Source: Candidatus Omnitrophota bacterium (GTDB lineage Bacteria > Omnitrophota > Gorgyraeia > JAFGIU01). From it: a DNA stretch of 64,000 nt. The translations under genes and the position numbers were made by a program. Below, piece by piece: positions 18,232 through 48,598 of the stretch. The notes beneath the pieces were generated by a model, which ran no database searches, was not told the DNA's origin, and saw nothing but the letters and a program-made list of their open reading frames with translations. The stretch lies in the NCBI GenBank assembly GCA_016929445.1, contig JAFGIU010000041.1:1929-65928 (forward strand), read 5' to 3'. Numbering within the stretch: the first letter of the stretch is position 1; each line of letters begins with the position of its first letter.

Positions 18232-19391
18232 GCCTCTGGAGCGGGGATCTTAAGCACGATCTTGGCGAGCACGCCGCCTCCGGGACGGTTGGTCACACTG
18301 ATCGTGCCGTTGTGGGATTCGATAATGTTGCGACTGAGCGTAAGCCCCAGGCCGCTGCCCTGTTTGACCGTGCGTGTGGTGAAAAAGGGATCAAAGATTT
18401 TGGTGATGTCTTTTTCTGAAATTCCCGCACCCGTGTCCTCGATATCAATCACAAAGACTTCTTCGCCCTCGTGGAATTGATCCGGCCGGCGCACGGCGGA
18501 CTTTTCTTGTATACGTTGAAAGACATCTGTGTACGTGGCCACAGTGAGGATCCCTCCATCGGGCATGGCCTGCAAGGCATTGCGGTACACAGAAACCAAA
18601 GCTTGATTGAACTTCTCGTGGTCCAGTGCAATCTTGGGCAGGTTCCTGCCCAGCTTCTTCACGATCTTGATGTTGTTCTTTTTGAATTCCTGATCCATGA
18701 GAAAGAGGGCCTTTTCCACCACCGTGTTGACAGTCTCCTGGTGGGGAGTGCCGCGTTGCGCCCCGGAGAGATTGGAGAGATCCTCGATAATCGTATCCAC
18801 CTGCTTCACAGAGTCTTCGATATTGCGCAGAGCGTCCTGGGTTTTGTCGTCATCCGTGTTGGTGTGTTTGAAGAGAAAGTGTGTGGCTAGCAGAATGCTG
18901 GTAAGAGGGTGCTTGATTTCATCGGCCATACGTTTGGCCAAACGGCCGGAAGATTCGAATTTTTCAGCCTGAATAAGCTGATCCTGCGTGGCCTGGAGCT
19001 CTTGGTGTGTGCGTTGGAGCTGGGCCTTGTCCGCGGCGTGCGTGAGAAGCTCCGTTTGCAAGCGCTCGATTGTAACGTGGAGTTCCCGGGAGGAACGCTC
19101 TATCCTTGAATGGGAAATCAGAAGATCCTGCACAATATCGTGGATCATGTTGCGGCCGAAAAACAGGCCGAGCAGGGCGATAAAGATGCTCAACAAAAAG
19201 TAGAAACCGTCCAGACCGATGAGTGCATTGACGGAAAAGAAGCGGACGGTAATCAGATAAAGACAGATGAGCAAGGGAATGATGCTCATTAGGGCAAATG
19301 CCACGTGGAAACGAGCTAGAGTGGCCTCGGATAAGCTGACCGGTATAGGAGGATTCTTCTCAGTGCTCACGCCCATAGTATACGACGGCAC
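18228..19391 (-). CDS. Sensor histidine kinase (2 TM + HisKA + HATPase_c)
   Basis: H-box AEKFESSGRLAKRMADEIKHPL. G-boxes DTGAGI and GSGLGL. Confidence 0.85.
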   Translation of the reverse strand: MPSYTMGVSTEKNPPIPVSLSEATLARFHVAFALMSIIPLLICLYLITVRFFSVNALIGLDGFYFLLSIFIALLGLFFGRNMIHDIVQDLLISHSRIERSSRELHVTIERLQTELLTHAADKAQLQRTHQELQATQDQLIQAEKFESSGRLAKRMADEIKHPLTSILLATHFLFKHTNTDDDKTQDALRNIEDSVKQVDTIIEDLSNLSGAQRGTPHQETVNTVVEKALFLMDQEFKKNNIKIVKKLGRNLPKIALDHEKFNQALVSVYRNALQAMPDGGILTVATYTDVFQRIQEKSAVRRPDQFHEGEEVFVIDIEDTGAGISEKDITKIFDPFFTTRTVKQGSGLGLTLSRNIIESHNGTISVTNRPGGGVLAKIVLKIPAPEA

Positions 19392-19413
19392 AAGGTGTAA
19401 GCCCAGTGCAGGG

Positions 19414-21507
19414 CTAGCTGAGCTTGAGCGCTGCCAAGGTGCGGGGCGGGAGAGTGTATGGAGTTCCGCAGGGGATCTGCTCCCCGTGTCTTTCAGGAAC
19501 AGAAGTGTGGATCATGGTTGTCCACGAGTGCGGGGCCCGGTAACAGGGCGGGTAGAAAACTTGTTCCGAATGGCCGGCGTTCATCAAGATAAAAAAGGTC
19601 GAGTCCGCGCCCACCAACCACATCCCGATGCATAACAGGTTCGGGGACTGCCAGTCGCTTTGCTTCATCTCCTGGCCGGAAGGTTTCAGCCAGAGCACGT
19701 CTTTGGCACGCAAACCCGGGAGAAATCGGCCGGTGAGGTACTCTGTGCGTCCTAACAGGGGCTCTGTCCGGCGCAGCCGGATAACGTGCTTGGTAAACTC
19801 AAGGAATTCTTGATCCGTTGGACTGAGATCCCAGTTAAGCCAGCTAAGTTCGCTATCTTGGCAATAGGCGTTGTTATTACCGAGCTGCGTGTGCCCGAGT
19901 TCGTCTCCGCCCAGGATCATGGGCGTGCCTATCGAGATCATGAGCGTGGCCATGAAATTGCGCTTATGCTTTTGGCGGCGGGAAACCGTCTCCGGGTCGT
20001 CGGTGGGCCCTTCAACCCCGCAGTTCCAGCTCAGGTTGTGGCTTTCGCCGTCCCGGTTGTTTTCGCCGTTGGCCTCGTTGTGCTTGGAGTTGTAGCTGAC
20101 CAAGTCTTGGAGGGTAAATCCGTCGTGGCAGGTCACAAAGTTGATGCTTGCGCTTGGAGGCCGGCCCTTTGTATCAAATTCCCATCCGCTGCCGCACACA
20201 CGTGAGATGAAGTCAGGGAGTGTTCCGGGCGTGCTTTTCCAATAGTTGCGCACGGCGCTGCGGAACTTATCATTCCATTCAGTCCAGGGCGGCGGGAAGT
20301 TTCCCAATTGATATCCGTCAAATCCGAGGTCCCATGGTTCAGCGATAAGTTTTGTCTTGTTTAGAAGAGGGTCCTCATTGATTTCCCTAAAGAACGCCCC
20401 GTTCATTTCCACGGAGTCTTTGCCGCGCGCCAAGGCAGTGGCTAAATCAAAACGGAAGCCGTCCACGTGCATCTCTCCCACCCAGTAGCGCAGGCTGTCG
20501 AGCACGAGCTGGCGCACCTGCGGGTGGCGCAGATTCAAGGTATTTCCGCAGCCGGAGAAGTTCTGGTAGAAACGCGGGTTGTTTGGTTCCAAACGGTAGT
20601 AGCTGGCATTGTCGATTCCCCGGAAATTGAGGGTGGGGCCGAATTGATTGCCCTCAGCCGTGTGGTTGTAGACCACATCCAGAATCACCTCGATGCCGGC
20701 ATTATGAAAGGACTTGACCATGTTGCGGAATTCATGGATAGCAAGCACCGGATCCTGTGCTGCGGCGTACTCGTAGTGGGGGATGAAGAAGGAGAGGGTG
20801 TTGTAGCCCCAATAATTGGTGGTTCCTTTGTCTTCGAGGTGGCGGTCGTCTGCATGAAGGTGCACGGGCAGCAGTTCGATCGCCGTGATGCCCAATTCTT
20901 GGAGGTGGCGGATCACGGGTTCGCTGGCAAGGCCCGCGTAAGTGCCGCGCAACTCCCTGGGGACTTTGGGGTGCAGGGCGGTCATGCCTTTGACGTGCGT
21001 TTCGTAAATCAGGGTTTTGTCCCAGGGCACCAGCGGAGCCTTGTCCTCGCCCCAATCATAGTGCTCCTCAACGACCATCCCCAGCGGAGCGCAGGCGGCG
21101 CTGTCTTTGCGGTCCATGAAGAGATCGCTGCGGCGTTTGGTAAATCGATAGGAAAAGAGTTCGTCCGACCACTTCAGCGGCCGGCCCAAAGCTTTGGCAT
21201 AAGGATCCAGCAGGACCTTGAAGGGATTGAAACGGTGCCCCTGGCGCGGGGTGTAGGGGCCGTGAATGCGGTAGCCGTAAAGCTGGCCCGGGCCGATTGC
21301 GGGCAAGTAGGCGTGCCAGACTCCCTGGGTGCGTTCTTGCAGAGGCAGGCGATGGGTTTCACGCGCAGCTTCCGGTGAATCAAAGAGGCAGAGTTCCACC
21401 GAAGTCGCGTGTTTGGCAAAGATGGCAAAGTTGGTCCCACTGCCGTCAAAGGTCGCCCCCAAGGGGGTTGCGCGTCCGGTTTCGAGGGTTGGAGCGGATG
21501 TACTCAA
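19414..21507 (-). CDS. glgX: Glycogen debranching enzyme GlgX (isoamylase, GH13)
   Basis: N-terminal PLGATFDGSGTNFAIFAKHATSVELCLF. GH13 catalytic regions (GFRFDLA, EPWD). 697 aa. Confidence 0.9.
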   Translation of the reverse strand: MSTSAPTLETGRATPLGATFDGSGTNFAIFAKHATSVELCLFDSPEAARETHRLPLQERTQGVWHAYLPAIGPGQLYGYRIHGPYTPRQGHRFNPFKVLLDPYAKALGRPLKWSDELFSYRFTKRRSDLFMDRKDSAACAPLGMVVEEHYDWGEDKAPLVPWDKTLIYETHVKGMTALHPKVPRELRGTYAGLASEPVIRHLQELGITAIELLPVHLHADDRHLEDKGTTNYWGYNTLSFFIPHYEYAAAQDPVLAIHEFRNMVKSFHNAGIEVILDVVYNHTAEGNQFGPTLNFRGIDNASYYRLEPNNPRFYQNFSGCGNTLNLRHPQVRQLVLDSLRYWVGEMHVDGFRFDLATALARGKDSVEMNGAFFREINEDPLLNKTKLIAEPWDLGFDGYQLGNFPPPWTEWNDKFRSAVRNYWKSTPGTLPDFISRVCGSGWEFDTKGRPPSASINFVTCHDGFTLQDLVSYNSKHNEANGENNRDGESHNLSWNCGVEGPTDDPETVSRRQKHKRNFMATLMISIGTPMILGGDELGHTQLGNNNAYCQDSELSWLNWDLSPTDQEFLEFTKHVIRLRRTEPLLGRTEYLTGRFLPGLRAKDVLWLKPSGQEMKQSDWQSPNLLCIGMWLVGADSTFFILMNAGHSEQVFYPPCYRAPHSWTTMIHTSVPERHGEQIPCGTPYTLPPRTLAALKLS

Positions 21508-21616
21508 GATGGGTCATTATAGCGGTGCTCAGCTTGATGCTCAACACCGGGGAGGCGTGGCTTGATACGGGTCCTATTTGTAGTAGAATCCCATAGGAGT
21601 ATATAGGGCATTAATT

Positions 21617-22819
21617 ATGGCAAATGAAAAACTTAATCTCCTGTTGGTAGAAGACAGTCCTACTGAGGCGGCTCTAATTCAAGAACGCCTGGAAGAGGCT
21701 TTCTCCGGTAAATTTTTTATTGAGCATCACAGCTTGCTCGTCACTGCCATTGACCGTCTGGGGCGCGGGCACATTGATGTTGTGCTCTTGGACTTGCACT
21801 TGCCCGATAGCCAGGGTCTTTGCACGGTTCAACGCGTGTGCGAATCAGTGCCGCAGGTTCCTGTCGTGGTTCTCACGGGCTTGGACGATGATTCGGCCGG
21901 GGTTCAGGCGGTTCGCTTCGGGGCCCAGGACTATCTTGTGAAGGGGCATTTTTCCGGAAGTGAGATTTTGCGGGTCCTGCGTTATGCAATTGAACGCCAC
22001 AAGATTCTTGAAAAACTCAAGTCCACTCAGCTGCAACTAGTTGAATCAGCAAAGTTTGAGTCTGTGGGCCGCTTGGCTCAAGGCGTGGCGCACGAGGTCA
22101 AGAATCCCCTAGCCATTCTCCTTGTCGGAGTTGAGTACCTGGCTGAAAAGATCCCGGGGGACAAGGATCTGCTCGGAATCCTGGAAAATATGGACCGGGC
22201 GATCAGGCGGGCCGACAAGATCATCAACGGTCTGGTGGACCTCTCTGTGGAGCGGGAACTGCGCTTTGAGGTGGATGACCTCAACATTGTGGTTGAACAC
22301 GTGCTGCTGTTGCTGACGCATGATTTGGCGCGCGCGCAGATCACAGTCATTCCCAGACTAGTTGAGGGCCTTCCTCCTGTGCTGGTGAACCGGGGCCGTC
22401 TGGAGCAGGTATTTATCAGTATTTTCCTCAACAGTATTTACGCAATGGCGGATGGTGGTGTGCTCAAGATCAAGACAGCTGTCCGGGAAGTCCGTGAGTT
22501 GGACAAGGAAGTGGGTTCGAAAGTTCCGGAGCGCCTGGCGGCTGACCAAAAAGTGGTTGTGGTGGAAATCGAAGACTCCGGCCCCGGGATCGGCGCAGAG
22601 GAAATGGAAAAGGTTTTTGACCCCTTCTTCACAACCAAACCCACGGGCCAGGGACCCGGACTGGGGCTGTCGGTGGCACGCAAGATTATGGAACTCCACA
22701 AAGGGATTATTTACCTAGCCAACCGGCCAGAGGGTGGTGTGCGCGCCACCCTGATCTTTGAGCCTGCTGCACGCCAGGAGCAGGGATCTCGCGCAGGCAC
22801 GCAACGACGTCCTACGTAG
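21617..22819 (+). CDS. Hybrid response-regulator receiver / histidine kinase
   Basis: N-terminal REC domain (LLVEDSPTEAAL ... VVLLDLHLPD). Then H-box SAKFESVGRLAQGVAHEVKNPL and HATPase_c (DSGPGIG, GPGLGLS). Confidence 0.85.
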   Translation: MANEKLNLLLVEDSPTEAALIQERLEEAFSGKFFIEHHSLLVTAIDRLGRGHIDVVLLDLHLPDSQGLCTVQRVCESVPQVPVVVLTGLDDDSAGVQAVRFGAQDYLVKGHFSGSEILRVLRYAIERHKILEKLKSTQLQLVESAKFESVGRLAQGVAHEVKNPLAILLVGVEYLAEKIPGDKDLLGILENMDRAIRRADKIINGLVDLSVERELRFEVDDLNIVVEHVLLLLTHDLARAQITVIPRLVEGLPPVLVNRGRLEQVFISIFLNSIYAMADGGVLKIKTAVREVRELDKEVGSKVPERLAADQKVVVVEIEDSGPGIGAEEMEKVFDPFFTTKPTGQGPGLGLSVARKIMELHKGIIYLANRPEGGVRATLIFEPAARQEQGSRAGTQRRPT

Positions 22820-22836
22820 GGATTCACTGGAACTGT

Positions 22837-24693
22837 ATGCTCGAGCAAATCCTAAGCCCGTCCTCTTATTCCTCTTCCGCCTTTGCTCTTGCCCCCGCTT
22901 TTGTCGGTCTCTACGTCCTCTGTGTTGCATTCGCCACACTGGTGCACGAGCGATTTTCCAAGATTAGCCTAACCTATGCCTTGTCCTGCGCAGGTGTTGC
23001 CGTTTGGTATTCCTCTATGTCGATGAATTACATGGCAAACAGCCATGAGTTGAACGCGTGGTGGATCAAAACCGGACTCCTGTTTTTTTGTATGACTCCA
23101 TCCATGATTATCGACACGAGCGCGGGAATTATCCGCAGGACACGACAATTCCGCACGTTGTTGCGGGTTAGCCATGCCCTTTCCTTTATTTACTTTGTGA
23201 CTATCCTGCTCGGACTCGGATTCTACACGGGCATTCATCACTATGAATGGGGCCACTATCCGGTATACGGCTTGGTCGGATGGTCCTTTGTCTTGTTTTT
23301 TGCCGGGGCAGTGCTTTTTAATCTGTGGTGCTTCAGAAAGTCCAGTAATGAATCGGATTCGCCTTTGCACAAAAAGAGATTGCGGGCTTTTGCGATCGCC
23401 TATGCTGTTTGTTACTTAGGTGCTTGGGACTTTCTGCCAGTCTTTGGAGTTGACGCTTATCCTTACGGCCCCGTTCCGGTGGGCGCCGGGTTTACCCTGA
23501 TGGCCTTTGCCATATGGCAGTATCGCTTGGTGGCGATCACACCGTCTCTTGCAGCTAAACACATCATTAAGACAATGCCGGAAGCGCTATTTGTTTTTGA
23601 TAACGAGGGGATTCTGAGCATCGTCAACCAATCCGGATGCGATTTGCTAGGCCGGCAAGAAACTGATCTTGTCGAGAAATCAATTGTCCGGATTGATGAT
23701 TCGGTGTTGACCCCTAAGTTTGTGCAGGAACTGATCGAGCTTGGAAATGTCAAAGATATGGAAATAGTACACCAGGGGAGGGAGGGTCAACGCTGGCTCA
23801 GCCTTTCTTCCCAAACGATGACCTCCGCGGACGGCAATTTGGAGGGCCTGGTGATTGTGGCGCGTGACATTACTGAGCGCAAAAGTGTTGAGAACGGGAT
23901 CTTGCTTGCGCGAACGGAACTGGCTAATACCCAGCTCCAAATAGCCAGGATGGAGAAGCTCCAGTCTATGGGACGTTTGGTTGCGGGCGTGGCTCATGAA
24001 GTCCTGAACCCTCTCACCACCATCAAATTGGGGGCGGAGGTTTTACGCGGAAGGCTTGTGCGAAACGAGGATCTGCATCCCATTGCGCAGGATATTCTGG
24101 ATGCCGGTGTGCGCGCGGAGGAGGTCTTGAAAAGGCTGATAAAGTTTTCCACCAGTTCGGAATTTAAGTTGCAGGAATGCAGCTTGAACCGCATCGTGGA
24201 GTCCGCTCTCCTGGTTCTGGAGCCCGAGATCAAGATCAGGCAGGTGAAGTTGGAATTGAATTTGGCTTCGGGCTTGCCGGCACTCCAATTGGATGCAGGG
24301 AAGATCGAACAGGCATTGGTCAATGTATTGTCGAACGCGATTCAGGCGGCACCCATTCGCGGTTCGTTGAAGGTTTCGTCCAAATTTCTCAACTCTTGCC
24401 GTTTCGACAACAGTGATGCGAATAACCGTCAGGCGGACCGGCTGCGCACGGGCGATAGTGTGATTGCGGTCGATATCGAGGACAACGGGCCGGGTATCTC
24501 GGAATCTCTCCTTGGCAATGTATTCGATCCCTTTTACACAACCAAACCCACGGGCAAGGCGATGGGTCTGGGGCTTACCGTGGCGCAGAAGATCGTGGAG
24601 TTGCACGGCGGGACCATTCATTTGCGGAATCGCAAAGAGGGAGGTGTTTGCGCTACTGTGTGTCTGAAGGTGTCTGACCCGGTACCGCATTAG
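22837..24693 (+). CDS. Membrane sensor histidine kinase (multi-TM sensor + PAS + HisKA + HATPase_c)
   Basis: ~7 hydrophobic segments at the N-terminus. PAS-like region. H-box KLQSMGRLVAGVAHEVLNPL. DNGPGIS and GLGLTV. Confidence 0.85.
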   Translation: MLEQILSPSSYSSSAFALAPAFVGLYVLCVAFATLVHERFSKISLTYALSCAGVAVWYSSMSMNYMANSHELNAWWIKTGLLFFCMTPSMIIDTSAGIIRRTRQFRTLLRVSHALSFIYFVTILLGLGFYTGIHHYEWGHYPVYGLVGWSFVLFFAGAVLFNLWCFRKSSNESDSPLHKKRLRAFAIAYAVCYLGAWDFLPVFGVDAYPYGPVPVGAGFTLMAFAIWQYRLVAITPSLAAKHIIKTMPEALFVFDNEGILSIVNQSGCDLLGRQETDLVEKSIVRIDDSVLTPKFVQELIELGNVKDMEIVHQGREGQRWLSLSSQTMTSADGNLEGLVIVARDITERKSVENGILLARTELANTQLQIARMEKLQSMGRLVAGVAHEVLNPLTTIKLGAEVLRGRLVRNEDLHPIAQDILDAGVRAEEVLKRLIKFSTSSEFKLQECSLNRIVESALLVLEPEIKIRQVKLELNLASGLPALQLDAGKIEQALVNVLSNAIQAAPIRGSLKVSSKFLNSCRFDNSDANNRQADRLRTGDSVIAVDIEDNGPGISESLLGNVFDPFYTTKPTGKAMGLGLTVAQKIVELHGGTIHLRNRKEGGVCATVCLKVSDPVPH

Positions 24694-25438
24694 CGATTTC
24701 CGCGCAGGTTAAGAACTGCCGTCCTTGAGCGCGCAGCTGCTTAACCCACTCTGTAAAAAATGCCTTCTGGCTGGGGCCGCAACGCCGGTAGTAGTACTGC
24801 TTCTTCCATCCGGCCACATTCAACCCTTCCACCGGACACCCGGCTAAATCGAAACAATGAGCATAGCAGACCACCGTTTCCAGGCCCCGGGTTGTGTGAG
24901 CGGCCGCTGCTAAAGCAGCAGGTCCCATTCCCATCAGCGCGGAACTCGAATAGGGCATGCCGCGCGCCATGAGTCGCGTGACCGGCACCCGGACCAGCTT
25001 AGGAGTTGCGGGGTCGATATGAGGCGGGACCCGCGAAAGCAGCGAAGAATCGTAATCGAAAAACTTTTCAACTTCGGAGAGGATCAGAGGGTTTGTCTGA
25101 AGGCTCATCGCGCGAAAACCCTTAATCTCAATGCCCTCCCGGTCAAAAGCTGCCTTGGACTCCTCAATGATTCCCGGGATGCCGGAGGGCTCGAGCTGCG
25201 TGAGACACTGCTTGTTCCCTTTGTCCATTTCGGAGTGGTGCGCGCCGTGACTGGCGATCTCATGCGGGGATTCCCTTAGCGCGCGGATCACATCCGGATT
25301 TCGCTCCAGTACCGAAGTTGTGCAAAAGAAAGTAGCCCGGATCCCGAGTTCCCCCAGCAGATCGAGAAATGCGTGGACCCCTTCCGGCGCAGCTTCAAAG
25401 GTGTGTTCGACATCAATGCTGAGGACGGCTTTTAGCAT
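24653..25438 (-). CDS. Polysaccharide deacetylase (NodB homology) family protein
   Basis: LSIDVE start and HGxxH motif (SHGAHH) typical of NodB/CE4. 261 aa. Confidence 0.7.
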   Translation of the reverse strand: MLKAVLSIDVEHTFEAAPEGVHAFLDLLGELGIRATFFCTTSVLERNPDVIRALRESPHEIASHGAHHSEMDKGNKQCLTQLEPSGIPGIIEESKAAFDREGIEIKGFRAMSLQTNPLILSEVEKFFDYDSSLLSRVPPHIDPATPKLVRVPVTRLMARGMPYSSSALMGMGPAALAAAAHTTRGLETVVCYAHCFDLAGCPVEGLNVAGWKKQYYYRRCGPSQKAFFTEWVKQLRAQGRQFLTCAEIANAVPGQTPSDTQ

Positions 25439-26169
25439 CAGGCTCGTTTATCTGCGGACACGATGAAGGTATCGGCCCACAAGGTGTTCCAAAGTCCGGT
25501 GAAGTGTTCCCAAATCAGATACGGCCGGTCGTGGGCGTGGCTGTACTCGAAACGGATACCCAAAACGTCCAGGTATTCTGGAAGCTCTCTTGCGCTGCTA
25601 AAAGGGACAATGATGTAAAGGTTCCGGCCGGTCAGAGAGTTGATCGTGAATCCTGTTTGCTCCAATAGCGTCTTCAGGCTTGCGGCTGAGAAGAAACGCA
25701 GGTGCTCGGAGTGCTGCACCTCCGAGCAGGTTTTCCCCAATAGATGCAAAAGGCGGTAAGCAATGTGCGCGCTATTGGGGGTGGTGAGCAGCAGCCGGCC
25801 GCCCGGCTTCAGCACGCGGCGGATTTCCGTGAGCAGCGCAGTGGGATTCGCCACATGTTCGAGCAGCTCCGTGCACCAAACGAGATCAAACTCGGCATCG
25901 GAAAGAGGCAAAGCTTCTTCAAGATTCGCTGTTTGTCCCTCAATGCCGCGCTCCCGGAGTTTTTGGATTGCATTGGAGCTGATATCAATACCGTAGACCT
26001 CGTGACCCATTTCTTTAAGCCGCGAAGCCATCACACCCGAGCCGCACCCCAAATCCAGCGCCCGGCCCGGCTTCAGCCCGCGCGCTTGCTCCAGAGCCCT
26101 CAGCTTATAGCTGTGCAGGACCTCTTCACCCGAAGCATACTTTTGTTGGTAATATTCGACATTCGGCAT
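25438..26169 (-). CDS. Class I SAM-dependent methyltransferase
   Basis: Motif I ALDLGCGSGV, motif LKPGGRLLLTTPN. Confidence 0.8.
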   Translation of the reverse strand: MPNVEYYQQKYASGEEVLHSYKLRALEQARGLKPGRALDLGCGSGVMASRLKEMGHEVYGIDISSNAIQKLRERGIEGQTANLEEALPLSDAEFDLVWCTELLEHVANPTALLTEIRRVLKPGGRLLLTTPNSAHIAYRLLHLLGKTCSEVQHSEHLRFFSAASLKTLLEQTGFTINSLTGRNLYIIVPFSSARELPEYLDVLGIRFEYSHAHDRPYLIWEHFTGLWNTLWADTFIVSADKRA

Positions 26170-27204
26170 TTAGCGGAACCAGGTTCGGAGCATAACCCAT
26201 CCGAAACCCAGAGGGTACCGTAGGCCCGGCGGTTTCTTGCTCATTCCGTTCTCCCGGTTGGCCACGGTGACAGGAACTTCCTTGTACCTCAGCCCCTTTC
26301 TGCGGGATTCAATCAAGATTTCCGGGGCGCTAAACCGGGATTCTTTCAGATTAAGGCGCATCAGATCTTGGGCGCGGATCGCGCGAAAGCCGTTGGTGAC
26401 ATCGGACACGCGCCTGCCGGTGAGTACGCTGGCCACTTTGGAAAAAAAGACAATGCCCGCGTGCCTTCCCGAGCCTTTTCCTTCGTACTCCCCCAGAAAA
26501 CGGGAACCCACCACCAAATCCGCCTCATCATTGAGCACAGGCAAGACCAGGCGCTCAACCTCTTCCGGCTGGTGTTGGCCGTCCGCGTCCATGGTGACGA
26601 TAACATCTGCTCCGTGCTCCAAAGCAATTTCAAATCCGGCGCGCAGCGCATCTCCCTGCCCACGGTTGATAATCAAGCTCGTCACAGGGTGGGCTGCATC
26701 GCGGCAAAGGGTATGCGTGTTGTCAGTGGCGCCGTCCACCACAACAATGGGTTTGACTTCACTGCTTCCGATCGTAGTGGGGAGGCGGCTGAGGACCCCT
26801 TGGATGGTGTCGCTTTCGTTAAAGGCGGGGATGACGACTGCGGTTAGAGTTCCGCCTGCTTTAATTCCGGAATGGGCTTGGGCAAATTCCGCGCGGGCCA
26901 AAGTCCGCACCAGATCGGACAGATGGCGCTGAGAGGCGCGCACTTGGTCCACCAAATAGAGCACGAGGAGGAAAAGAATGCCGTTCGCGACCACCACCAG
27001 AGTGAGCCAGCGGATCTGCATATTGAGGGAGCGGCGAACGAAGTCCAGAAGAGAGGGGAACGCGCTGGTCGCGATAATGGTGAGGGCAACAGCCCAGAAC
27101 ACAGCCAGATCCAGCCGCCTCAGGCTGCCGGAACGGAAGCGGCGATAAGTGAAAAAGGCCAGCCAAAGGCCGACCAGTATTCCTAAAATTTGGATATTTC
27201 TCAT
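26170..27204 (-). CDS. GT2 polyprenyl-phosphate glycosyltransferase (ArnC/DPM1/GtrB-like) with N-terminal membrane helices
   Basis: ATG at 27204 (MRNIQILGIL). GT2 motifs VVIPAFNESD and TMDADGQHQPEE (DxD). Three N-terminal TM helices. Confidence 0.8.
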   Translation of the reverse strand: MRNIQILGILVGLWLAFFTYRRFRSGSLRRLDLAVFWAVALTIIATSAFPSLLDFVRRSLNMQIRWLTLVVVANGILFLLVLYLVDQVRASQRHLSDLVRTLARAEFAQAHSGIKAGGTLTAVVIPAFNESDTIQGVLSRLPTTIGSSEVKPIVVVDGATDNTHTLCRDAAHPVTSLIINRGQGDALRAGFEIALEHGADVIVTMDADGQHQPEEVERLVLPVLNDEADLVVGSRFLGEYEGKGSGRHAGIVFFSKVASVLTGRRVSDVTNGFRAIRAQDLMRLNLKESRFSAPEILIESRRKGLRYKEVPVTVANRENGMSKKPPGLRYPLGFGWVMLRTWFR

Positions 27205-27205
27205 G

Positions 27206-28138
27206 TTAAGTACTCTTGGTTCGCTGCAGATAAAGGGTGCCCAAAGCCCCCCACACCCCAACGACAATCCATTGTATCACATGGCTTCCTACGGCCAGAA
27301 AGGCGGGGTTGGGCAGGCCCTCGCCCAAGCGGAGTCCCAGAAAGACGCTGGCTTCCCAAGTGCCGAGCCCTCCGGCGGTCTGCACTGTCTTTGAAAGCGA
27401 GAGAAAAACATAGATGAGGAGCAAGGAGGCGAGGCTGGGTGTGTGACCGACGGATTGCAGCAGGAAACTCAAGAAGACCAGGCGAACAATCTGTATGAGG
27501 AAACTGGCTGCGATCAATTTGAGATAGAGGCGGCGTTCGTGGAGCTTCCGGAGTTCAAAGGCCGTGTTGCGCAGCCAGCCGACCAGTTTCTTATGGAAGC
27601 GGGGTCCCTTCCCTTCATGGGCGCGCGGCTGGAGATTCTTGCGGCTCAGAATCTCCAGGCTGAGAACAAAGGCCCCGGTGCCGATCCATCCGATGGCCAC
27701 AGCCCAAGTGAGCTCCGTGTAATAGGGGAGGATGCTCTGGGGCCGCAGCGCCCAGAATCCGGTCAAGAAAAGCATGAGTGCGAGCGTGTCTCCCACATAG
27801 GTAAAGACAAAAGCGGATCCGGACTCCGCGAGGGACAGCTTGAGATAGTTGCGAGCCATATATAGAAATGAGGCGGATCCCGAGTGGCTGGGCAGGATGT
27901 GATACCAGACCGTGAAGATGCACAGAATGGCCGTGAGCATACCCAGTTCCCGAATTTGAAGCAGCCACGCCGTGATCCAGGCAGAGCCCATGTTGATTAG
28001 GAAAAAGAGACTCAGCGCGACCAGAAGGGGCCCTAAGTGAAAGGCCTTTTTTACCCCGGCCCACTCTTCAAAGGGGACTTGCAGCAAGACAAAAACGAAG
28101 AGACACAGAGGAATTAAGCCGCGCAGAAAAGTTTTCAT
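27206..28138 (-). CDS. Flippase-like membrane protein (lysylphosphatidylglycerol-synthase TM-region / UPF0104 family)
   Basis: ~8 TM segments. Family recalled as frequently adjacent to GT2 enzymes. Stop abuts the GT2 start. Confidence 0.6.
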   Translation of the reverse strand: MKTFLRGLIPLCLFVFVLLQVPFEEWAGVKKAFHLGPLLVALSLFFLINMGSAWITAWLLQIRELGMLTAILCIFTVWYHILPSHSGSASFLYMARNYLKLSLAESGSAFVFTYVGDTLALMLFLTGFWALRPQSILPYYTELTWAVAIGWIGTGAFVLSLEILSRKNLQPRAHEGKGPRFHKKLVGWLRNTAFELRKLHERRLYLKLIAASFLIQIVRLVFLSFLLQSVGHTPSLASLLLIYVFLSLSKTVQTAGGLGTWEASVFLGLRLGEGLPNPAFLAVGSHVIQWIVVGVWGALGTLYLQRTKST

Positions 28139-29199
28139 CGAAGCAGCGTTCTTCTGATGTGCCGGCCCATCCTCTCAAGCAAGGGCCTGGGCATGTTTTG
28201 AAAGAAGGCTGCCCCGATGCGCAACTGCGGGTGTTCCTGAGAAAGCGGGGGAATGGCCCGGATCTCATCGCGGATCAGATCCCATCCCAAATCCCATCTT
28301 AAACTTTCCTCCACACCCCATTTCTCTTTGAAGCGGCGCTGCCCGCTGTATTTCATAGGACCGAAATCCACGGCATCCAAGCCCATTTGGTGGGCCAGCT
28401 CAATGGCTTGCCAGTGGGCCAGATCATTGCATCGGTACTCCAGCCCTTCCTTTTTGGAGAGGGTGAAAAGAAGCTCCATCTGGTTTGCGGTGTATCCGGC
28501 CAGGAGCAGGGCGAGAACCGTGTCCTTATGGAATACTTGGATAAGAAGCAGATGGGTCTGGTCCAAGCTGAACCAAGTTTCGAAATAGGGTCTGGGATGA
28601 GGCGGAGTGCCGAAGCGTTTCATTCCTCCCAGATAGAAGGAGTAGAAAAGATCTGTGTTGGCCCTTGTGGGAGGAGCGGTGCGAACGTGCAAGCCGGAAC
28701 GTTCGGCCTTATTGAGGGCCTTCTTCAAAGAATAATGAAGCTCGGACTGGATCTCGACCAACTCTCTCAGGGGAAGTCTTGCATAAGGATAGGCTGCCGC
28801 CAGGGGCATGCTGTTCTCCAAGCCTTCGATTAAAGGCATCCCGATGAAACGAACGGATTTGAGTTCCAGTTTGCGCATTTCTTCAAGCAGGCAATGGCGC
28901 GCCCACATATCCCACCGGCGTGAGGATCCTGCGCTGCCGACGGGGAGCAGCAAACCGGGACGGGCGCAAAACGGAAGCCCTACAGCTTTAGCCTTTTGGG
29001 GATGGCGAACGATGGCCAGCTGGCACTCTTCTCCGGTACTGCAGCAGGTGCTCAAATAATGAGTGGCCAAACCATAAGTGTCTTCGAGCACATGGGCCAT
29101 GATGGGTTGGTGGAAGACAGATCCATCAGGATGAGTGAGAGCCGCACTCTGGACCCGCGTATTGGCAATGGAGTACTTTGGTCCGGGTCTCTTGAACAT
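28135..29199 (-). CDS. FemAB-family / GNAT-fold acyl(aminoacyl)transferase
   Basis: Preferred start ATG 29199 (MFKRPGPKY), giving ~354 aa. Overall pattern resembles FemAB-like (exopolysaccharide-locus type) proteins. Weak motif-level support only. Confidence 0.5.
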   Translation of the reverse strand: MFKRPGPKYSIANTRVQSAALTHPDGSVFHQPIMAHVLEDTYGLATHYLSTCCSTGEECQLAIVRHPQKAKAVGLPFCARPGLLLPVGSAGSSRRWDMWARHCLLEEMRKLELKSVRFIGMPLIEGLENSMPLAAAYPYARLPLRELVEIQSELHYSLKKALNKAERSGLHVRTAPPTRANTDLFYSFYLGGMKRFGTPPHPRPYFETWFSLDQTHLLLIQVFHKDTVLALLLAGYTANQMELLFTLSKKEGLEYRCNDLAHWQAIELAHQMGLDAVDFGPMKYSGQRRFKEKWGVEESLRWDLGWDLIRDEIRAIPPLSQEHPQLRIGAAFFQNMPRPLLERMGRHIRRTLLR

Positions 29200-29227
29200 G
29201 GACCGTATTTTAGCATAGGATAAGCCT

Positions 29228-30478
29228 ATGAAATCCCGGACGAAAACAATTGTAGCAGTAGTAGTTGTGTTCCTTTTTGCCTGGGGTATCCGCTCTGTCT
29301 TCAATATTCTATTCCCGGCAAAGGGTGCGCTGGATACCCCCTGGTACACAGAGGGGGCGCAGATTCTGCTGCAGCCCGGCGGATTTATGCGGCTTGTGGA
29401 TATGGGATATGGGTATTATCTGGGACGGATGACCCATATTGGCTTTATCGCGGTATGTCAGCTGCTGTTCGGATTGCCGGCAACGGTACCGATGGTTCAG
29501 ATTCAGGCTTTCTTGAGCGCGGTCACCGTGCTCATCCTCTATTTCTCGGCCAGGCGCTTCGCTTCGAAAGAATCCGCTTTGGGCGCGATGATTCTCGCTG
29601 CGGCGCACATGCCCTTTGCGTTTTGGGCAGGGTACATCTTATCTGAGACAGTGTTCCTCCTATTTGTGGCGATTTGGGCCTTCTTTGCTATCCGGCTGGC
29701 CCAGGAGTGGAAGTGGACGAATCTTGCGGGCTTTCTCGGCTTTGCCCTGGTGTGTGTTTTTACCCGGCCCAATGCCTTGGGATATGCGGTCTTAGCCGCA
29801 GTATGGGTGCTTTGGGTCTGGGTGAGGAACTCTATTCAGAGAGGCTCCCGGGCTCATACCTGGCTGAAGCTCACCGTTGTCGCACTGAGCCTTTGTTATT
29901 TTTGGACCGTCTGGTTTACCTTCGAAAATATTAATCGCCCGGAAGAAGAACGCTGGAGCGGTTTCAGCTATATCATGAAGGATTACAATTCGAGGAATGA
30001 GAATTTCAAAGAGTGGTCCAAGCCGGAATGGGGTTGGTTGGTTTATACGGAGTATCGCAACTATGTGGTCCACGACATGGACGACAATGCCGAAAAGCTG
30101 CGAGTGCAGTTGCGGAAGGCCTGGATGTATTGGAAACCCTGGCGGGAATGGTTTTCACTTAAGCATAACGTATATAACACGTTCTACATGGTCCTGGCCG
30201 GCGGGCTGGGTGTCTTGGGGCTGGTGTTTCTCTCGCGCAAGCGCCCTGCATTTAGAGACTTTGTTTTGCTTGTGTTTCTTTACCATACGAGTATCGCTGT
30301 TGTAGACAGTCCGGGAGCAGACGGGCGCTACCGTTTGCCTTGTGAGTATTTGTTGCTTTTGGTGTCCGCCGGGGGTCTTGAGTGGTTGCGTTACTTTTGG
30401 AACAGTAAAGCAAAAGAGGGTACAACAAGGCGGGATAAAGGGAGTCTGCAAGATGAGGCGGGTATGCGCAGCGGATAG
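29228..30478 (+). CDS. GT-C fold membrane glycosyltransferase (ArnT/PMT-like, GT39/GT83-type)
   Basis: ~11 TM segments. The first extracytoplasmic loop has LDTPWYTEGAQILLQ, resembling the ArnT/PMT D-E-x-R-Y-A-E-I-A motif. Divergently adjacent to the GT2/flippase operon. Confidence 0.55.
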   Translation: MKSRTKTIVAVVVVFLFAWGIRSVFNILFPAKGALDTPWYTEGAQILLQPGGFMRLVDMGYGYYLGRMTHIGFIAVCQLLFGLPATVPMVQIQAFLSAVTVLILYFSARRFASKESALGAMILAAAHMPFAFWAGYILSETVFLLFVAIWAFFAIRLAQEWKWTNLAGFLGFALVCVFTRPNALGYAVLAAVWVLWVWVRNSIQRGSRAHTWLKLTVVALSLCYFWTVWFTFENINRPEEERWSGFSYIMKDYNSRNENFKEWSKPEWGWLVYTEYRNYVVHDMDDNAEKLRVQLRKAWMYWKPWREWFSLKHNVYNTFYMVLAGGLGVLGLVFLSRKRPAFRDFVLLVFLYHTSIAVVDSPGADGRYRLPCEYLLLLVSAGGLEWLRYFWNSKAKEGTTRRDKGSLQDEAGMRSG

Positions 30479-31074
30479 TAGACCCCGAGACTTTCCTTTG
30501 CGGCCAATCCGGCCTGATTTCCGAGAGCTAGAATTTCTTCAAACCGGTATTGACGGGGCCGCATGCCATTGGCTGCGGCGGGTCTCTTCATTAACTGGAC
30601 TCCGCGGCGGATCCAGCTCTGTGCATTAAGACAGGCCACAAAGAAGGTGCCGCCTGGCCGTAGCACTCGTCGGGCTTCGGCAAAAAGAGTCTGAGGCTGC
30701 TCCAAGAGTCCGATGACTCCGTGACATAACACGAGATCAAATGTTTGAGAGTCAAAAGGAAGGCTTCCAGCAGATCCCAAGGCCACCCTCAGGCCCTTTT
30801 GCACAGCGAGCTTGGCCATTTCCGGGCTGATGTCGATTCCATAAACGATATTGTTTTCAAGCAGGGGCCGGACAAAAAGCCCAGAGCCGCAACCGATCTC
30901 CAAAACGGCTTGCTTGCGGACTTTTCCAATAAGTCTGAACCATTGTTGGCAGGCAACATAGCTTCCCGCATCACGATAGTCGTTGGCCTCAGGCGTGTCG
31001 CCCAAGCGGTTTGCCTGCGAGTCGTAATGAGTTTTCCACGAGGCACTTGGAGATTTAACTGATGTTGGCATCAT
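30391..31074 (-). CDS. Class I SAM-dependent methyltransferase
   Basis: Motif I VLEIGCGSGLF, LRPGGTFFV. Its 3' end overlaps the GT-C gene convergently by 88 nt. Confidence 0.7.
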   Translation of the reverse strand: MMPTSVKSPSASWKTHYDSQANRLGDTPEANDYRDAGSYVACQQWFRLIGKVRKQAVLEIGCGSGLFVRPLLENNIVYGIDISPEMAKLAVQKGLRVALGSAGSLPFDSQTFDLVLCHGVIGLLEQPQTLFAEARRVLRPGGTFFVACLNAQSWIRRGVQLMKRPAAANGMRPRQYRFEEILALGNQAGLAAKESLGVYYPLRIPASSCRLPLSRLVVPSFALLFQK

Positions 31075-31144
31075 TGGTTAGCTTCCTGGACAATGAACAT
31101 TCCCCATTGTACAGTAAACATATTCTGCAAGGGAGGGACTGTTT

Positions 31145-31759
31145 TTGGGCCGGATGGAAATACTCTTTCGATTTCCCGGGTTATACCGGTTCAAACGCGC
31201 AATGACGCGTTTGTTTGCGGTTCGGAGCGGATGGGATCCCAGAGCTTACCTGGAGCAGGGACTGGTCCTGGATCTGGGATGCGGGCCGGATGAGTCAGAC
31301 ACGGATCTCTCTGGCATCAAACGGGTTGGGATTGATGTTTCCGTTCCCTTCCTCCGCGCGGCCAAGTGTTCCAGTCCTTCCGGATATTTTGTGAGGGCCA
31401 GCGCCGAGAAACTTCCCTTTGTGGACGGCGCGTTTCAGGCGACTTTTGTAAGCTGTGTTCTGCATCATATTCCGGTGGACACCCGCTTGATCATAGAAGA
31501 AATCCGCCGGGTGACGCGAGAGCATCTTGTGCTGGTGGAACCTCTGCAGTCTGAGAGAGGGTTTCCCAGATGGGTCAAGACCCTCTGGTGGCGCATGACG
31601 GACGGAGGGTGTGCGTATCTGCCTGAATCCGAGTGGAATGAGTTGTTGGCGGGTTGGGACCAGGTGCAGCGCATCGAAGAAGGCAGGCTGTTTAAGAACA
31701 CCTTCAGGTTTATTGGATCACGAACGAAAGACCCGGCATTCGAAGGGAGCGCACAATGA
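31145..31759 (+). CDS. Class I SAM-dependent methyltransferase
   Basis: Motif I VLDLGCGPD, followed by an acidic motif. Confidence 0.7.
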   Translation: MGRMEILFRFPGLYRFKRAMTRLFAVRSGWDPRAYLEQGLVLDLGCGPDESDTDLSGIKRVGIDVSVPFLRAAKCSSPSGYFVRASAEKLPFVDGAFQATFVSCVLHHIPVDTRLIIEEIRRVTREHLVLVEPLQSERGFPRWVKTLWWRMTDGGCAYLPESEWNELLAGWDQVQRIEEGRLFKNTFRFIGSRTKDPAFEGSAQ

Positions 31760-32964
31760 AGATTATGATTGCAGGAGTGGACGGATACTTGGGGTGGGCC
31801 TTGGCGCAGCATTTGACCATGCGCGGACATGAGGTGAGCGGTTTTGATACTTATGCAAGACGGGATTGGGTCGCGGAAGTGGGTTCGCAATCGGCCACTC
31901 CGATTGTGCGCATGACCGAACGCTTGGCTGCGTTCAGGCGGGAGTACGGAGTCAATCTTCAGTTCCGGCGTCTCGATATTATGGATTACAATGCGCTCGC
32001 TTTGTTTCTGCGATCCGTGCAACCCGATGCGATCGTGCACCTGGCGGAGATGCCTTCGGCGCCTTATAGCATGATGGATGCGCACCACGCGGTTTACACC
32101 CAGTCGAACAATGTCTTGGGCACTCTGAATCTGCTCTTCGCCATCCACGAACATTGTCCAAATGCCCATCTTGTCAAACTGGGGACCATGGGAGAGTACG
32201 GAACGCCGAATATTGATATCCCTGAGGGCTTTTTTGAAATTGAGTACCGCGGCCGCAAGGCCACGTTGCCTTTCCCGCGCCAGGCCGGCAGCTGGTATCA
32301 CCAGAGCAAGGTGCACGACTCGCACAATGTCGCCTTTGCGTGCAAGATCTGGGGCCTGCGTTCCACGGATATCATGCAGGGTGTGGTTTTCGGCACGCGC
32401 ATTGAGAATCAGCCCGAAGACGAGAGGCTTCTCACCCGGTTTGATTTTGACCAGAGCTTTGGCACCGCGATTAACCGGTACTGCGCGCAAGCCGTTATCG
32501 GGGAGCCCCTGTCGGTTTTTGGCGCCGGGGGCCAGAGCCGTGGATTTTTGCCGCTCAAGGATTCCATGCAGTGCATCAGCTGCATTATTGAGAATCCCGC
32601 GCAGAAAGGCGAATACCGCGTCCTCAATCAGTTCGACAAGGTGTTTGATGTGACCGAGCTTGCTGAAAAAGTGCAGCAGATCGGAAAGTGCGTGGGCCTG
32701 AAGGTGGAAGTCAATCATATCGAGAACCCTCGTATGGAAGCGGAGTCGCATTACTACAATCCGGACCGGGAAGGTTTGCTTCGGCTCGGGTATAAGCCAA
32801 CCGAAGATATTGACTCTGAGATAGAGAACATGTTAGAAGATTTAATGCAGTATCGTGAACGTATCGAGGCCAGAGCAGAGGCTTTGATTCCCGATATCCG
32901 CTGGGACGGTACGATACGCAAGTCCGAGGTGATTCAACCCAAGACGGTGACTAGCGCAAAGTGA
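31756..32964 (+). CDS. sqdB: UDP-sulfoquinovose synthase
   Basis: Near-identity at hallmark SQD1/SqdB positions. GVDGYLGW (GxDGYxGW Rossmann). HLAEMPSAPYSMMDAHHAVYTQSNNVLGTLN. LVKLGTMGEYGTPNIDIPEG. YHQSKVHDSHN catalytic Y-x3-K block, identical to plant SQD1 YHLSKVHDSHN. ~400 aa, including the SQD1-specific insertion. Confidence 0.9.
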   Translation: MKIMIAGVDGYLGWALAQHLTMRGHEVSGFDTYARRDWVAEVGSQSATPIVRMTERLAAFRREYGVNLQFRRLDIMDYNALALFLRSVQPDAIVHLAEMPSAPYSMMDAHHAVYTQSNNVLGTLNLLFAIHEHCPNAHLVKLGTMGEYGTPNIDIPEGFFEIEYRGRKATLPFPRQAGSWYHQSKVHDSHNVAFACKIWGLRSTDIMQGVVFGTRIENQPEDERLLTRFDFDQSFGTAINRYCAQAVIGEPLSVFGAGGQSRGFLPLKDSMQCISCIIENPAQKGEYRVLNQFDKVFDVTELAEKVQQIGKCVGLKVEVNHIENPRMEAESHYYNPDREGLLRLGYKPTEDIDSEIENMLEDLMQYRERIEARAEALIPDIRWDGTIRKSEVIQPKTVTSAK

Positions 32965-33875
32965 AAGTCTTAATTACCGGTGGATGCGGATTCATCGGTT
33001 CCAATCTCATTGACTACCTGCTTCCCAGGGGATACGAGCTCTCTATCCTCGACAATCTCAGCTCCGCAAGCGACGAATACGCGCGCGCCCAAAATGTCCC
33101 TGTCCAAGCCGGCGATATCCTGGATGACAATGCACTGAGTCAGAGCCTGGCCAATGTGGAATCGGTCGTGCATTTGGCCGCGCTGACCAGTGTGCCCGAT
33201 TCTATGGCGGATCCGTTGAGTAATTTCCGTGTCAATGTGGAAGGGACGTGGAAGGTGCTGGAAGCCTGCCGCACAGCCGGGGTGACACGCTTTGTTTTTG
33301 CCAGTTCCAACGCGGCCGTGGGGGAGCAGGAACCCCCGATCCGGGAGGACATTTTGCCGGCGCCCAAATCGCCTTACGGCGCGAGCAAGCTCATGGGAGA
33401 GGCGCTGGTCAGGAGCTATGCCGAGGCCTACGGGATCCAGGCCCTTTCCCTGCGTTTTGCCAATGTGTTCGGGCCCCATGCGGAGACCAAGGGAGCGGTT
33501 GTCGCGGCTTTTCAACGCAGTATTAAGCAGGGTAAACAGCTCACTATCTACGGGGACGGGGAACAGACCCGCGATTTTGTGCACGCTGCAGATATTGCGC
33601 AGGCCATCGAATTGGGCTTACAGAAGGGCGGCCACGGGCAGGTGTATCAGATTGCCAGCGGGAAAGAGACCTCCATTTTGGAACTGGCCATGAAGATTCT
33701 GAACCTGCACGGCAAAAACTACAAAGAAGGGGTGTGTTTTGCAGAGGCCCGGCCGGGAGATATTCTGCGCAATTACTCGGATATCGGCAGGGCAAGCGCG
33801 GAATTAGGATATGAGCCCAAAGAAGACCTCTGGTCCTTCCTAGAAGAATCCAAGATGCAGCCGAGCGGCTTCTGA
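32961..33875 (+). CDS. NAD-dependent epimerase/dehydratase (UDP-glucose 4-epimerase-like SDR)
   Basis: GGCGFIGSNL Rossmann motif, YGASK catalytic motif. 304 aa. Its start overlaps the sqdB stop. Confidence 0.85.
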   Translation: MKVLITGGCGFIGSNLIDYLLPRGYELSILDNLSSASDEYARAQNVPVQAGDILDDNALSQSLANVESVVHLAALTSVPDSMADPLSNFRVNVEGTWKVLEACRTAGVTRFVFASSNAAVGEQEPPIREDILPAPKSPYGASKLMGEALVRSYAEAYGIQALSLRFANVFGPHAETKGAVVAAFQRSIKQGKQLTIYGDGEQTRDFVHAADIAQAIELGLQKGGHGQVYQIASGKETSILELAMKILNLHGKNYKEGVCFAEARPGDILRNYSDIGRASAELGYEPKEDLWSFLEESKMQPSGF

Positions 33876-48586: not shown

Positions 48587-48598
48587 GCGCAGGGGATC

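Follow-up and report, generated by a model that had tools for sequence, protein, structure and literature searches.

A candidate lipid-carrier route for sulfoquinovose encoded beside sqdB in a Candidatus Omnitrophota genome

The gene cluster at positions 24653-33875 of a 64,000-nucleotide stretch of Candidatus Omnitrophota DNA (GenBank assembly GCA_016929445.1, contig JAFGIU010000041.1; the whole stretch is referred to as the window) combines sqdB, the gene for UDP-sulfoquinovose synthase, with genes for a family 2 glycosyltransferase (GT2), a UPF0104 membrane protein and a membrane glycosyltransferase of the GT-C fold. The reading that we favour, with confidence somewhat better than even, is a three-component extracytoplasmic glycosylation system in which a polyprenyl-phosphate carrier is loaded with sulfoquinovose (SQ) or with a sugar closely derived from it. 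A first-pass annotation of the window had proposed lipid-carrier-dependent sulfoquinovosylation from these genes, and the analysis supports this as the leading hypothesis, with synteny as the decisive evidence. The pairing of genes recurs in many non-photosynthetic phyla, which points to an undescribed route for placing SQ on the cell surface.

The first enzyme is assigned by homology. Residues 2-384 of the sqdB product (31756-32964, plus strand; 402 aa) align to residues 3-383 of Arabidopsis SQD1 (1qrr/1i24) with 415 bits. The catalytic Thr of the GTMGEYG motif and the T/Y-H-x-x-K residues, including YHQSK, are kept relative to SQD1. The score against the NCBIfam model NF041015 is 554.8 bits over 1-383/384, marginally under the annotation cutoff of 575. 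Judged from the alignment to SQD1, the window sqdB is a genuine UDP-sulfoquinovose synthase. The first-pass annotation had made the same identification, and only its description of the YHQSKVHDSHN block as identical to SQD1 needs correction, as SQD1 reads YHLSKVHDSHN and 10 of the 11 residues match. The gene directly after sqdB (32961-33875, plus strand; 304 aa) encodes a GalE-like short-chain dehydrogenase/reductase (SDR; Pfam Epimerase, 219.9 bits). Among solved structures it comes closest to UDP-glucose 4-epimerases (such as 4zrm, 166 bits), and relatives of 40-48% identity are found in sqdB or GT2 loci of other genomes. Pfam detects no GT-B gene within 24653-33875, and the cluster holds no GT4 SqdX/SQD2; two GT-B genes of the window (49295-51223 and 54037-55209) lie outside it. 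In this respect the cluster differs from the SqdB/SqdX (SQD1/SQD2) pathway to sulfoquinovosyldiacylglycerol (SQDG), with which it shares, as with Sulfolobus Agl3, the first enzyme that converts UDP-glucose and sulfite to UDP-SQ. An Agl16-type enzyme had been named as the partner of SqdB in archaeal N-glycosylation. This is incorrect, since Agl16 attaches a terminal glucose and not SQ, and the SQ transferase of Sulfolobus N-glycosylation has not been identified (PMC8993221).

The glycosyltransferase that would use this sugar is a fusion protein encoded at 26170-27204 (minus strand; 344 aa). Its Glycos_transf_2 domain (71 bits) is preceded by an N-terminal three-helix DUF2304 domain (38.4 bits; cutoff 25.5), which is absent from the first-pass annotation. 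GacJ and Rv3632 belong to DUF2304; they are small membrane proteins that bind and stimulate the undecaprenyl-phosphate N-acetylhexosamine (HexNAc) synthases GacI and PpgS, respectively, and natural DUF2304-GT2 fusions have already been noted (bioRxiv 10.1101/180810). The best NCBIfam models for the GT2 are PpgS at the top, AglJ, Dol-P-hexose transferase and ArnC, and the best PDB matches are the Pyrococcus dolichol-phosphate mannose synthase (DPMS; 5mlz), ArnC and GtrB. The nearest characterised relatives (DPMS, ArnC, PpgS and AglJ) all glycosylate polyprenyl phosphate, in agreement with the DPM1/ArnC-like class proposed earlier, and the DxD-type TMDADGQH motif is invariant across the alignment of the GT2 subfamily, as are the basic residues R181, R235, R247, R274, R317 and K323/K324. 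By homology, the window GT2 belongs to the polyprenyl-phosphate glycosyltransferases. The PpgS, ArnC and AglJ models score 52-90 bits on it, compared with cutoffs of 325-529, which indicates no orthology to an enzyme of known specificity; the donor sugar is therefore not readable from homology. From its synteny with sqdB, the fusion is a candidate polyprenyl-phosphate sulfoquinovose synthase.

The adjoining gene (27206-28138, minus strand; 310 aa) encodes a UPF0104 / LPG_synthase_TM (PplT) membrane protein. It matches PF03706 over residues 11-297 with 44.7 bits, above the gathering cutoff of 33.4, and this full-length match secures the family assignment made earlier. The family supplies the flippase domain of MprF and is the predicted flippase of lipid-linked sugars in archaeal glycosylation (PMC5898192; 10.1101/2022.03.11.483950). 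The window protein is a candidate flippase of the polyprenyl-phosphate sugar. Its relatives lie beside GT2 and/or sqdB in 14 other loci, as detected with a hidden Markov model (HMM) that was rebuilt after Pfam identified one relative (in locus L102); the initial three-sequence HMM missed most of them.

The third component (29228-30478, plus strand; 416 aa) is a compact and very divergent membrane protein. A word-index homologue search returned nothing but the protein itself, and 118 relatives, the best of them 31% identical, were all that HMMER recovered when 1.8 billion representatives were searched exhaustively. The match to Pfam PMT_2 reaches 23.3 bits (gathering cutoff 26.1), and 28 of 35 aligned homologues match PMT_2. 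Asp36 and Tyr40 in the first extracytoplasmic loop are kept in at least 90% of these 35 homologues. The family profile has a sole PDB sequence match, ArnT (5ezm, E=2.3e-7), which covers about 220 N-terminal positions and aligns D36..Y40 with the DEGRY loop. An AlphaFold (AF2) model built on the homologue alignment (pLDDT 84.9, pTM 0.85; a single-sequence attempt reached only pLDDT 47) is all-helical and membrane-embedded. The top 31 Foldseek matches to this model in the PDB are all GT-C enzymes or related membrane enzymes with lipid-linked donors, from the STT3, PglB, AglB, PMT, AftB, ArnT and ALG9 families (probability about 1.0, best TM 0.5-0.59), and there is no confident match outside this group. 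The GT-C fold and the ArnT-like loop that had been proposed for this protein are borne out by the model and by the profile alignment, respectively. As modelled, it is a compact GT-C enzyme without a large periplasmic domain. Orthology to ArnT (GT83) is rejected, since the protein has 416 residues compared with 578, matches ArnT in the N-terminal part only and lacks the C-terminal periplasmic domain. The suggested architecture of GT2, flippase-like protein and GT-C enzyme is complete within 26170-30478.

The linkage of these genes to sqdB was compared across genomes from two anchors. For the first, a scan of species-representative genomes gave the 80 closest sqdB loci (61-71% identity), all in metagenome-assembled genomes (MAGs) of non-phototroph type. 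The open reading frames (ORFs) of the comparison loci, numbered with L, were called by a simple in-house procedure, and neighbours were assigned by clustering and Pfam. At least 11 loci encode a full-length relative of the DUF2304-GT2 protein (33-45% identity) no more than 5 kb from sqdB. These loci (L009, L015, L034, L038, L042, L048, L051, L053, L068, L077 and L080) come from species of Desulfobacterota, Chloroflexota, Acidobacteriota, Bipolaricaulota, Zixibacteria and others. Split versions of the fusion occur in L028, L014 and L025, and a GalE-like SDR follows sqdB in roughly 22-29 loci.

The reciprocal comparison starts from the GT2. Metagenomes were scanned with aligned sqdB-linked GT2s, which gave 80 loci, and those whose GT2 reached 250 bits or more against the family profile were counted as the subfamily. 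True sqdB is present in 31 of the 67 subfamily loci, usually 0-450 bp upstream, and every sqdB of the GT2-anchored loci keeps the Y-H-x-x-K motif. Where at least 3 kb is available on both flanks, sqdB accompanies the GT2 in 13 of 20 subfamily loci, compared with 0 of 13 more distant GT2 loci. A 166-aa SDR fragment in L167 was considered as sqdB and rejected. The synteny of sqdB, GT2, UPF0104 and GT-C genes on which the lipid-carrier proposal depends is seen in many phyla and is reciprocal from both anchors.

Several loci replicate the module more fully. The MAG of a Bipolaricaulota species (L028) carries sqdB-GT2-DUF2304-methyltransferase-methyltransferase-UPF0104-PMT_2 on one strand (PMT_2 66 bits). 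Three methyltransferase genes precede sqdB-SDR-GT2 in L164, and a gene for a 776-aa PMT_2 protein follows; L048 combines sqdB-UPF0104-SDR-GT2 with a 17-helix membrane protein. In L103, L105, L111, L122, L123 and L127, sqdB points away from one or two PMT_2 genes, behind which the GT2 gene lies. The trio of GT2, UPF0104 and GT-C also occurs in L028, L034, L083 and L143. YfhO-type proteins lie near the module in L096 and L065, and PTPS_related membrane proteins in L034 and L051; these two families, with DUF6541 and DUF6077, are ones that we take to be GT-C-type, partly on the basis of Pfam clan membership. The GT-C neighbours of the comparison loci were detected by profile or Pfam searches only. 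The pairing extends to a cultured actinobacterium, Rubrobacter calidifluminis (GCA_028617075.1), in which the stop of sqdB overlaps the start of the DUF2304-GT2 gene (L162, 8817-11056). This sqdB is 50% identical to that of the window, and its flanks encode Mannosyl_trans2 and DUF6541 membrane proteins, an SDR and a cis-prenyltransferase.

Other contexts of sqdB and sqdB-like genes were observed. Some Spirochaetia and delta-proteobacterial MAGs share the order NusG-like gene, sqdB, SDR, unannotated gene and Wzx. A Wzx-type (Polysacc_synt) flippase gene accompanies sqdB in L019, L027, L030, L037, L058, L061, L063 and L076, from Spirochaetia, delta-proteobacterial and Acidobacteria MAGs, with the NusG-like gene ahead in some; these clusters hint at SQ in Wzx/Wzy-type polysaccharides. 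A divergent SqdB-like subfamily (382 aa, 45% identical to the window SqdB) is found in L130, L132, L138 and L168 (2863-4011 in the last). Its members have YHTTK(V/I)(M/L)D in place of YHxSKVHD and show a similar linkage to the GT2 and to genes for sulfate activation, and their product may differ from UDP-SQ.

The ten genes listed earlier for 24653-33875 are all present at the coordinates given for them, according to the ORFs and to gene calls. Gene starts were fixed by gene calls on a Logan contig with identical sequence, and domains were assigned by Pfam and NCBIfam. A leftward operon, in which adjoining stops and starts abut or overlap, comprises five genes. The first encodes a FemAB-like / Acetyltransf_6 acyl- or aminoacyl-transferase (28135-29199, minus strand; 354 aa; PF13480, 36.8 bits) and is followed by the UPF0104 and DUF2304-GT2 genes. 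The last two encode a class-I S-adenosylmethionine (SAM) methyltransferase, MT1 (25438-26169, minus strand; 243 aa; Methyltransf_23, 111 bits), and a NodB-type deacetylase of carbohydrate esterase family 4 (CE4; 24653-25438, minus strand; 261 aa; PF01522 / Polysacc_deac_1, 49.9 bits). The GT-C gene is divergent from this operon and convergent with that of a second class-I SAM methyltransferase, MT2 (30391-31074, minus strand; 227 aa; Methyltransf_11, 80.6 bits). A third, MT3 (31202-31759, plus strand; 185 aa; Methyltransf_11, 46.8 bits), forms a rightward operon with sqdB and the SDR gene, with 4-nt overlaps between neighbours. The cluster is bordered by histidine kinases on the left and by a Suf iron-sulfur operon on the right, and the base composition of the region is unremarkable. 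A hopanoid hpn-type reading of the genes (HpnA/HpnB/HpnL-like) is rejected, as the HpnB and HpnA scores of 26.6 and 85.6 bits are far under the cutoffs and no hopanoid genes are present.

The tailoring genes differ in how widely they recur. A relative of MT1 (40% identity) follows sqdB-SDR-GT2 in L051, and methyltransferases also lie beside the GT2 in L028 and L068 (a pair in each), L051, L138 and L164. Beside the gene of the nearest GT-C homologue, P0002, and divergent from it, a gene for a 501-aa methyltransferase-GT2 fusion protein was observed, a hint that methyltransferases work with the GT2. Given this recurrence and the fusion, either the sugar or the lipid-linked intermediate could plausibly be methylated. 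In the NodB protein, which lacks a signal peptide, the CE4 metal-binding motifs are kept (DVEH and HEIASHGAHH). In PEP-CTERM polysaccharide loci, CE4 enzymes have a pair partner, to which the FemAB-like protein is similar (TIGR03019, 74.3 bits, far under its cutoff). phmmer searches with these two proteins found no homologue in the 160 comparison loci, and among about 170 loci in all they occur in the window only. The NodB, FemAB-like, SDR and three methyltransferase genes described earlier are all present, but NodB and the FemAB-like protein are not conserved partners of the module.

These components can be arranged into a pathway. SqdB would convert UDP-glucose and sulfite to UDP-alpha-SQ, and the GalE-like SDR may supply or balance UDP-glucose, or epimerise the sulfo-sugar. 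The DUF2304-GT2 protein, as a single-chain equivalent of GacJ plus GacI, would move SQ to polyprenyl phosphate at the cytoplasmic face; it is presumably inverting like its relatives and would give beta-SQ-phospho-polyprenol. The UPF0104/PplT protein would flip the lipid-linked SQ across the membrane, and the compact GT-C enzyme would pass SQ to a periplasmic acceptor, for which the lipid A or LPS of the first-pass annotation is a guess. SqdB, the class of the GT2 and the GT-C fold are established by homology or fold, and the donor sugar, the flipping step and the use of this donor by the GT-C enzyme are proposed from synteny only. The three methyltransferases, NodB and the FemAB-like enzyme may tailor the sugar or the acceptor glycan. 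For NodB and the FemAB-like enzyme it is more likely that they act on a neighbouring or acceptor amino-sugar, or that they point to a rival pathway.

A number of observations weigh against this pathway. sqdB is located outside the GT2 operon, and MT3-sqdB-SDR lies about 4.5 kb from the GT2. The proposal of UDP-SQ as the GT2 donor draws on synteny rather than on an experimental or structural argument, and the characterised enzymes with DUF2304 partners take UDP-GlcNAc or UDP-GalNAc (10.1101/180810). The comparison loci are not phylogenetically independent. The scan patterns were derived from sqdB-linked sequences and may favour that clade, and a second sample was therefore taken from the closest relatives of the window GT2 on long contigs. 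In this less biased sample, sqdB or a divergent sqdB-like gene is present in 4 of 8 loci (L162, L164, L165 and L168). About a third to half of the long-flank GT2 relatives have no sqdB, which indicates that the subfamily is not strictly tied to SQ, and neither sqdB (within 8-10 kb) nor sulfotransferases are found in L100, L121, L134, L163, L169 and L170. phmmer with the window GT-C found no direct match in the comparison loci, which hold only distant kin, and this enzyme, like NodB and the FemAB-like protein, is therefore not conserved in sequence with the other modules. The contig of P0002 (ENA ERZ1426844; 10 kb; 31% identity) has no sqdB; it carries the methyltransferase-GT2 fusion, a methyltransferase, GT1, GT4 and AsnB genes and says little about sqdB linkage. 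The presence of NodB and the FemAB-like protein in the GT2 operon suggests an N-acetylated or amino-sugar, which they suit better than SQ.

The last point leads to a different assignment of the same genes, in which the GT2 loads GlcNAc or GalNAc on the carrier, NodB deacetylates it in an ArnD-like manner, the FemAB-like enzyme re-acylates or aminoacylates it, UPF0104 flips it and the GT-C enzyme transfers it. A different glycosyltransferase, in the cytoplasm, would then use UDP-SQ, either to make SQDG or in a glycan built by the GT-B enzymes at 49-55 kb. The division of the cluster agrees with this assignment, as FemAB-like, UPF0104, GT2, MT1 and NodB genes form one tight operon and sqdB lies in another. 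PpgS, the top NCBIfam match, is a HexNAc enzyme, the association of a deacetylase, UPF0104 and a glycosyltransferase is a known context (PMC5898192; PMC12713373), and the two GT-B genes are available 15-21 kb downstream. However, the sqdB-GT2 pair is conserved, often with overlapping start and stop, in many loci that lack NodB or FemAB, and the low model scores of the GT2 make it no orthologue of any HexNAc enzyme. We consider the amino-sugar assignment unlikely.

A lipid end product is also conceivable. The GT2, alone or with NodB, and UPF0104 would act as a triad similar to HexSDF of C. difficile and GpgSDF of P. aeruginosa, with polyprenyl-phosphate SQ or another SQ-lipid as an anionic end product in the outer leaflet and the GT-C enzyme in another pathway. 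The HexSDF and GpgSDF operons each encode a deacetylase and a UPF0104 flippase together with the glycosyltransferase and alter the charge of the membrane surface, and the UPF0104 proteins of HexSDF, GpgSDF and MprF are tied to the flipping of finished charged lipids (PMC10128005; PMC12713373). The sqdB-GT2 pair occurs without a recognisable GT-C within 10 kb in many loci (L090, L091, L115, L116 and L130). In contrast to the window, the synthases of these triads are GT-B enzymes (HexS is similar to monogalactosyldiacylglycerol synthase and GpgS is a GT4) rather than DPM1-like GT2s, and their substrates are diradylglycerol or phosphatidylglycerol lipids; the triads yield a finished membrane lipid, and neither a GT-C nor a sulfo-sugar is involved. 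DUF2304 has so far been tied to polyprenyl-phosphate acceptors (10.1101/180810), and GT-C-type proteins recur by the module (PMT_2, YfhO, PTPS_related, Mannosyl_trans2, TMEM260_N, DUF6541 and DUF6077). A finished sulfoglycolipid thus appears distinctly improbable. A chance neighbourhood, in which sqdB belongs to an ordinary SQDG pathway completed by an sqdX/SQD2 elsewhere and the GT2, UPF0104 and GT-C genes form an unrelated Gtr/Arn-like system, could be accommodated by the 64 kb of genome in view, beyond which sqdX may lie, and by the Anaerolineae (L023, L026, L033, L035 and about 15 others), where sqdB stands in a strictly conserved prephenate dehydratase-asd-sqdB-hisD order of housekeeping genes with no glycosyltransferase nearby, but it is very improbable in view of the reciprocal linkage across phyla (13 of 20 against 0 of 13), the full replicas in L028 and L164 and a frequency of sqdB in random 20-kb windows that we estimate at well under 1% from one copy per several-Mb genome.

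The carrier pathway for SQ resembles several known systems in architecture. The group A carbohydrate of Streptococcus pyogenes receives its GlcNAc side chain from GacI/GacJ/GacK/GacL, which comprise a GT2 that forms undecaprenyl-phosphate sugar, a DUF2304 partner, a flippase and a GT-C that acts outside the cytoplasm. The window differs in host, which is a Gram-negative-type candidate phylum, in UPF0104 in place of the Wzx-type flippase GacK, in the fused DUF2304 and in sqdB as the nucleotide-sugar gene, where the Gac sugar is GlcNAc. ArnC/ArnD/ArnEF/ArnT, which place 4-amino-4-deoxy-L-arabinose (L-Ara4N) on lipid A, likewise comprise a GT2 that acts on undecaprenyl phosphate, together with a flippase, a GT-C and a deacylase of CE4/NodB type whose substrate is the lipid-linked sugar. 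The ArnC model nevertheless gives 52 bits on the window GT2 (cutoff 529), the flippase belongs to another family, genes for Ara4N synthesis are absent, and the window GT-C is shorter than ArnT as described above. PpgS and Rv3632, which serve the addition of galactosamine to mycobacterial arabinogalactan, provide a polyprenyl-phosphate-HexNAc synthase stimulated by a DUF2304 protein, and Rv3779 is reportedly the GT-C of this pathway. The PpgS score of 89.5 bits against a cutoff of 370 makes the window GT2 no orthologue, and the sugar context differs. The archaeal AglD-type neighbourhood unites a GT2, UPF0104 and a PMT/STT3-like protein, with UPF0104 proposed as the flippase, and a second archaeal context with a polysaccharide deacetylase has also been described (Makarova et al., 2015; PMC5898192). 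Unlike the window, this neighbourhood is archaeal, uses dolichol as the carrier and has no described link to sqdB; it is likewise a prediction.

The architecture is therefore already known from Gtr, Arn, GacIJKL and the predicted archaeal AglD/UPF0104/PMT-like neighbourhood, and what is new is the coupling to a UDP-SQ synthase, the implied donor polyprenyl-phosphate SQ and the breadth of this coupling. A 2026 review of the SQ cycle treats SQ as the head group of SQDG from phototrophs (PMC13436972). The statement of the first-pass annotation that no bacterial pathway of this kind is described agrees with our full-text literature searches, which found no report of polyprenyl-phosphate SQ, of a pathway of this type or of an SQ glycoconjugate other than a lipid in bacteria.

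The module may extend beyond SQ. Sulfite supply is encoded next to sqdB in L028, L042, L165 and L168, where a PAPS reductase (PAPS, 3'-phosphoadenosine-5'-phosphosulfate) or CysNC adjoins the gene. One to four PAPS-type sulfotransferases surround GT2 relatives without sqdB in L083, L135, L143, L095, L144 and L167, and in L168 a sulfotransferase occurs along with PAPS reductase, CysNC and an sqdB-like gene. As sulfotransferases are present where sqdB is absent, the module appears to be tied to sulfo-sugars in general, which suggests a DUF2304-GT2/UPF0104 module dedicated to sulfo-sugars made by C-sulfonation or O-sulfation. A broader proposal is a widespread bacterial surface decoration with sulfo-sugars through a dedicated DUF2304-GT2. 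The sugar would be SQ from SqdB in most lineages and an O-sulfated sugar where PAPS sulfotransferases replace sqdB, and UPF0104 and varied GT-C enzymes would place it on envelope polymers or proteins. We put this forward tentatively, with confidence that falls somewhat short of even. The lineages would include Omnitrophota, Chloroflexota, Acidobacteriota, Desulfobacterota, Bipolaricaulota, Zixibacteria and Actinomycetota (Rubrobacter).

SQ is currently seen as the SQDG head group of phototrophs and as part of one archaeal N-glycan. If the carrier pathway for SQ is correct, polyprenyl-phosphate SQ would be a new lipid-linked activated donor in bacterial glycobiology, and the cell surface would carry a decoration that is permanently anionic yet free of phosphate. 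SQ in sediments, soils and groundwater would then have an uncounted source in non-phototrophs, of which many are anaerobes. The sqdB-GT2 pair of the cultured Rubrobacter calidifluminis makes the question directly testable and offers a possible laboratory model.

The surroundings of the cluster contain further features. Three sensor histidine-kinase genes around a CBM48/alpha-amylase gene lie directly to its left (18228-24693); one kinase is a hybrid with a receiver domain, one has 7TM and PAS domains, and the three may regulate the cluster. Another glycan cluster, distinct from the first, occupies 46659-60916 and encodes a radical-SAM/SPASM protein, methyltransferases, a formyltransferase, GT1 with DUF218, GT4, asparagine synthase, a DegT aminotransferase and an SDR, as well as a second FemAB/Acetyltransf_6 protein. 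It could provide the acceptor glycan, or it could use UDP-SQ in the cytoplasm. Giant ORFs are located in 8611-13419 and 40482-45917; one, of 1602 aa, has an MTS methyltransferase domain, and the other, of 1811 aa, lies in a stretch with a GC content of about 0.60 compared with about 0.55 elsewhere. A single 648-aa ORF at 1343-3289 fuses HemD (uroporphyrinogen-III synthase) and HemE (uroporphyrinogen decarboxylase), and a ferrochelatase gene follows it.

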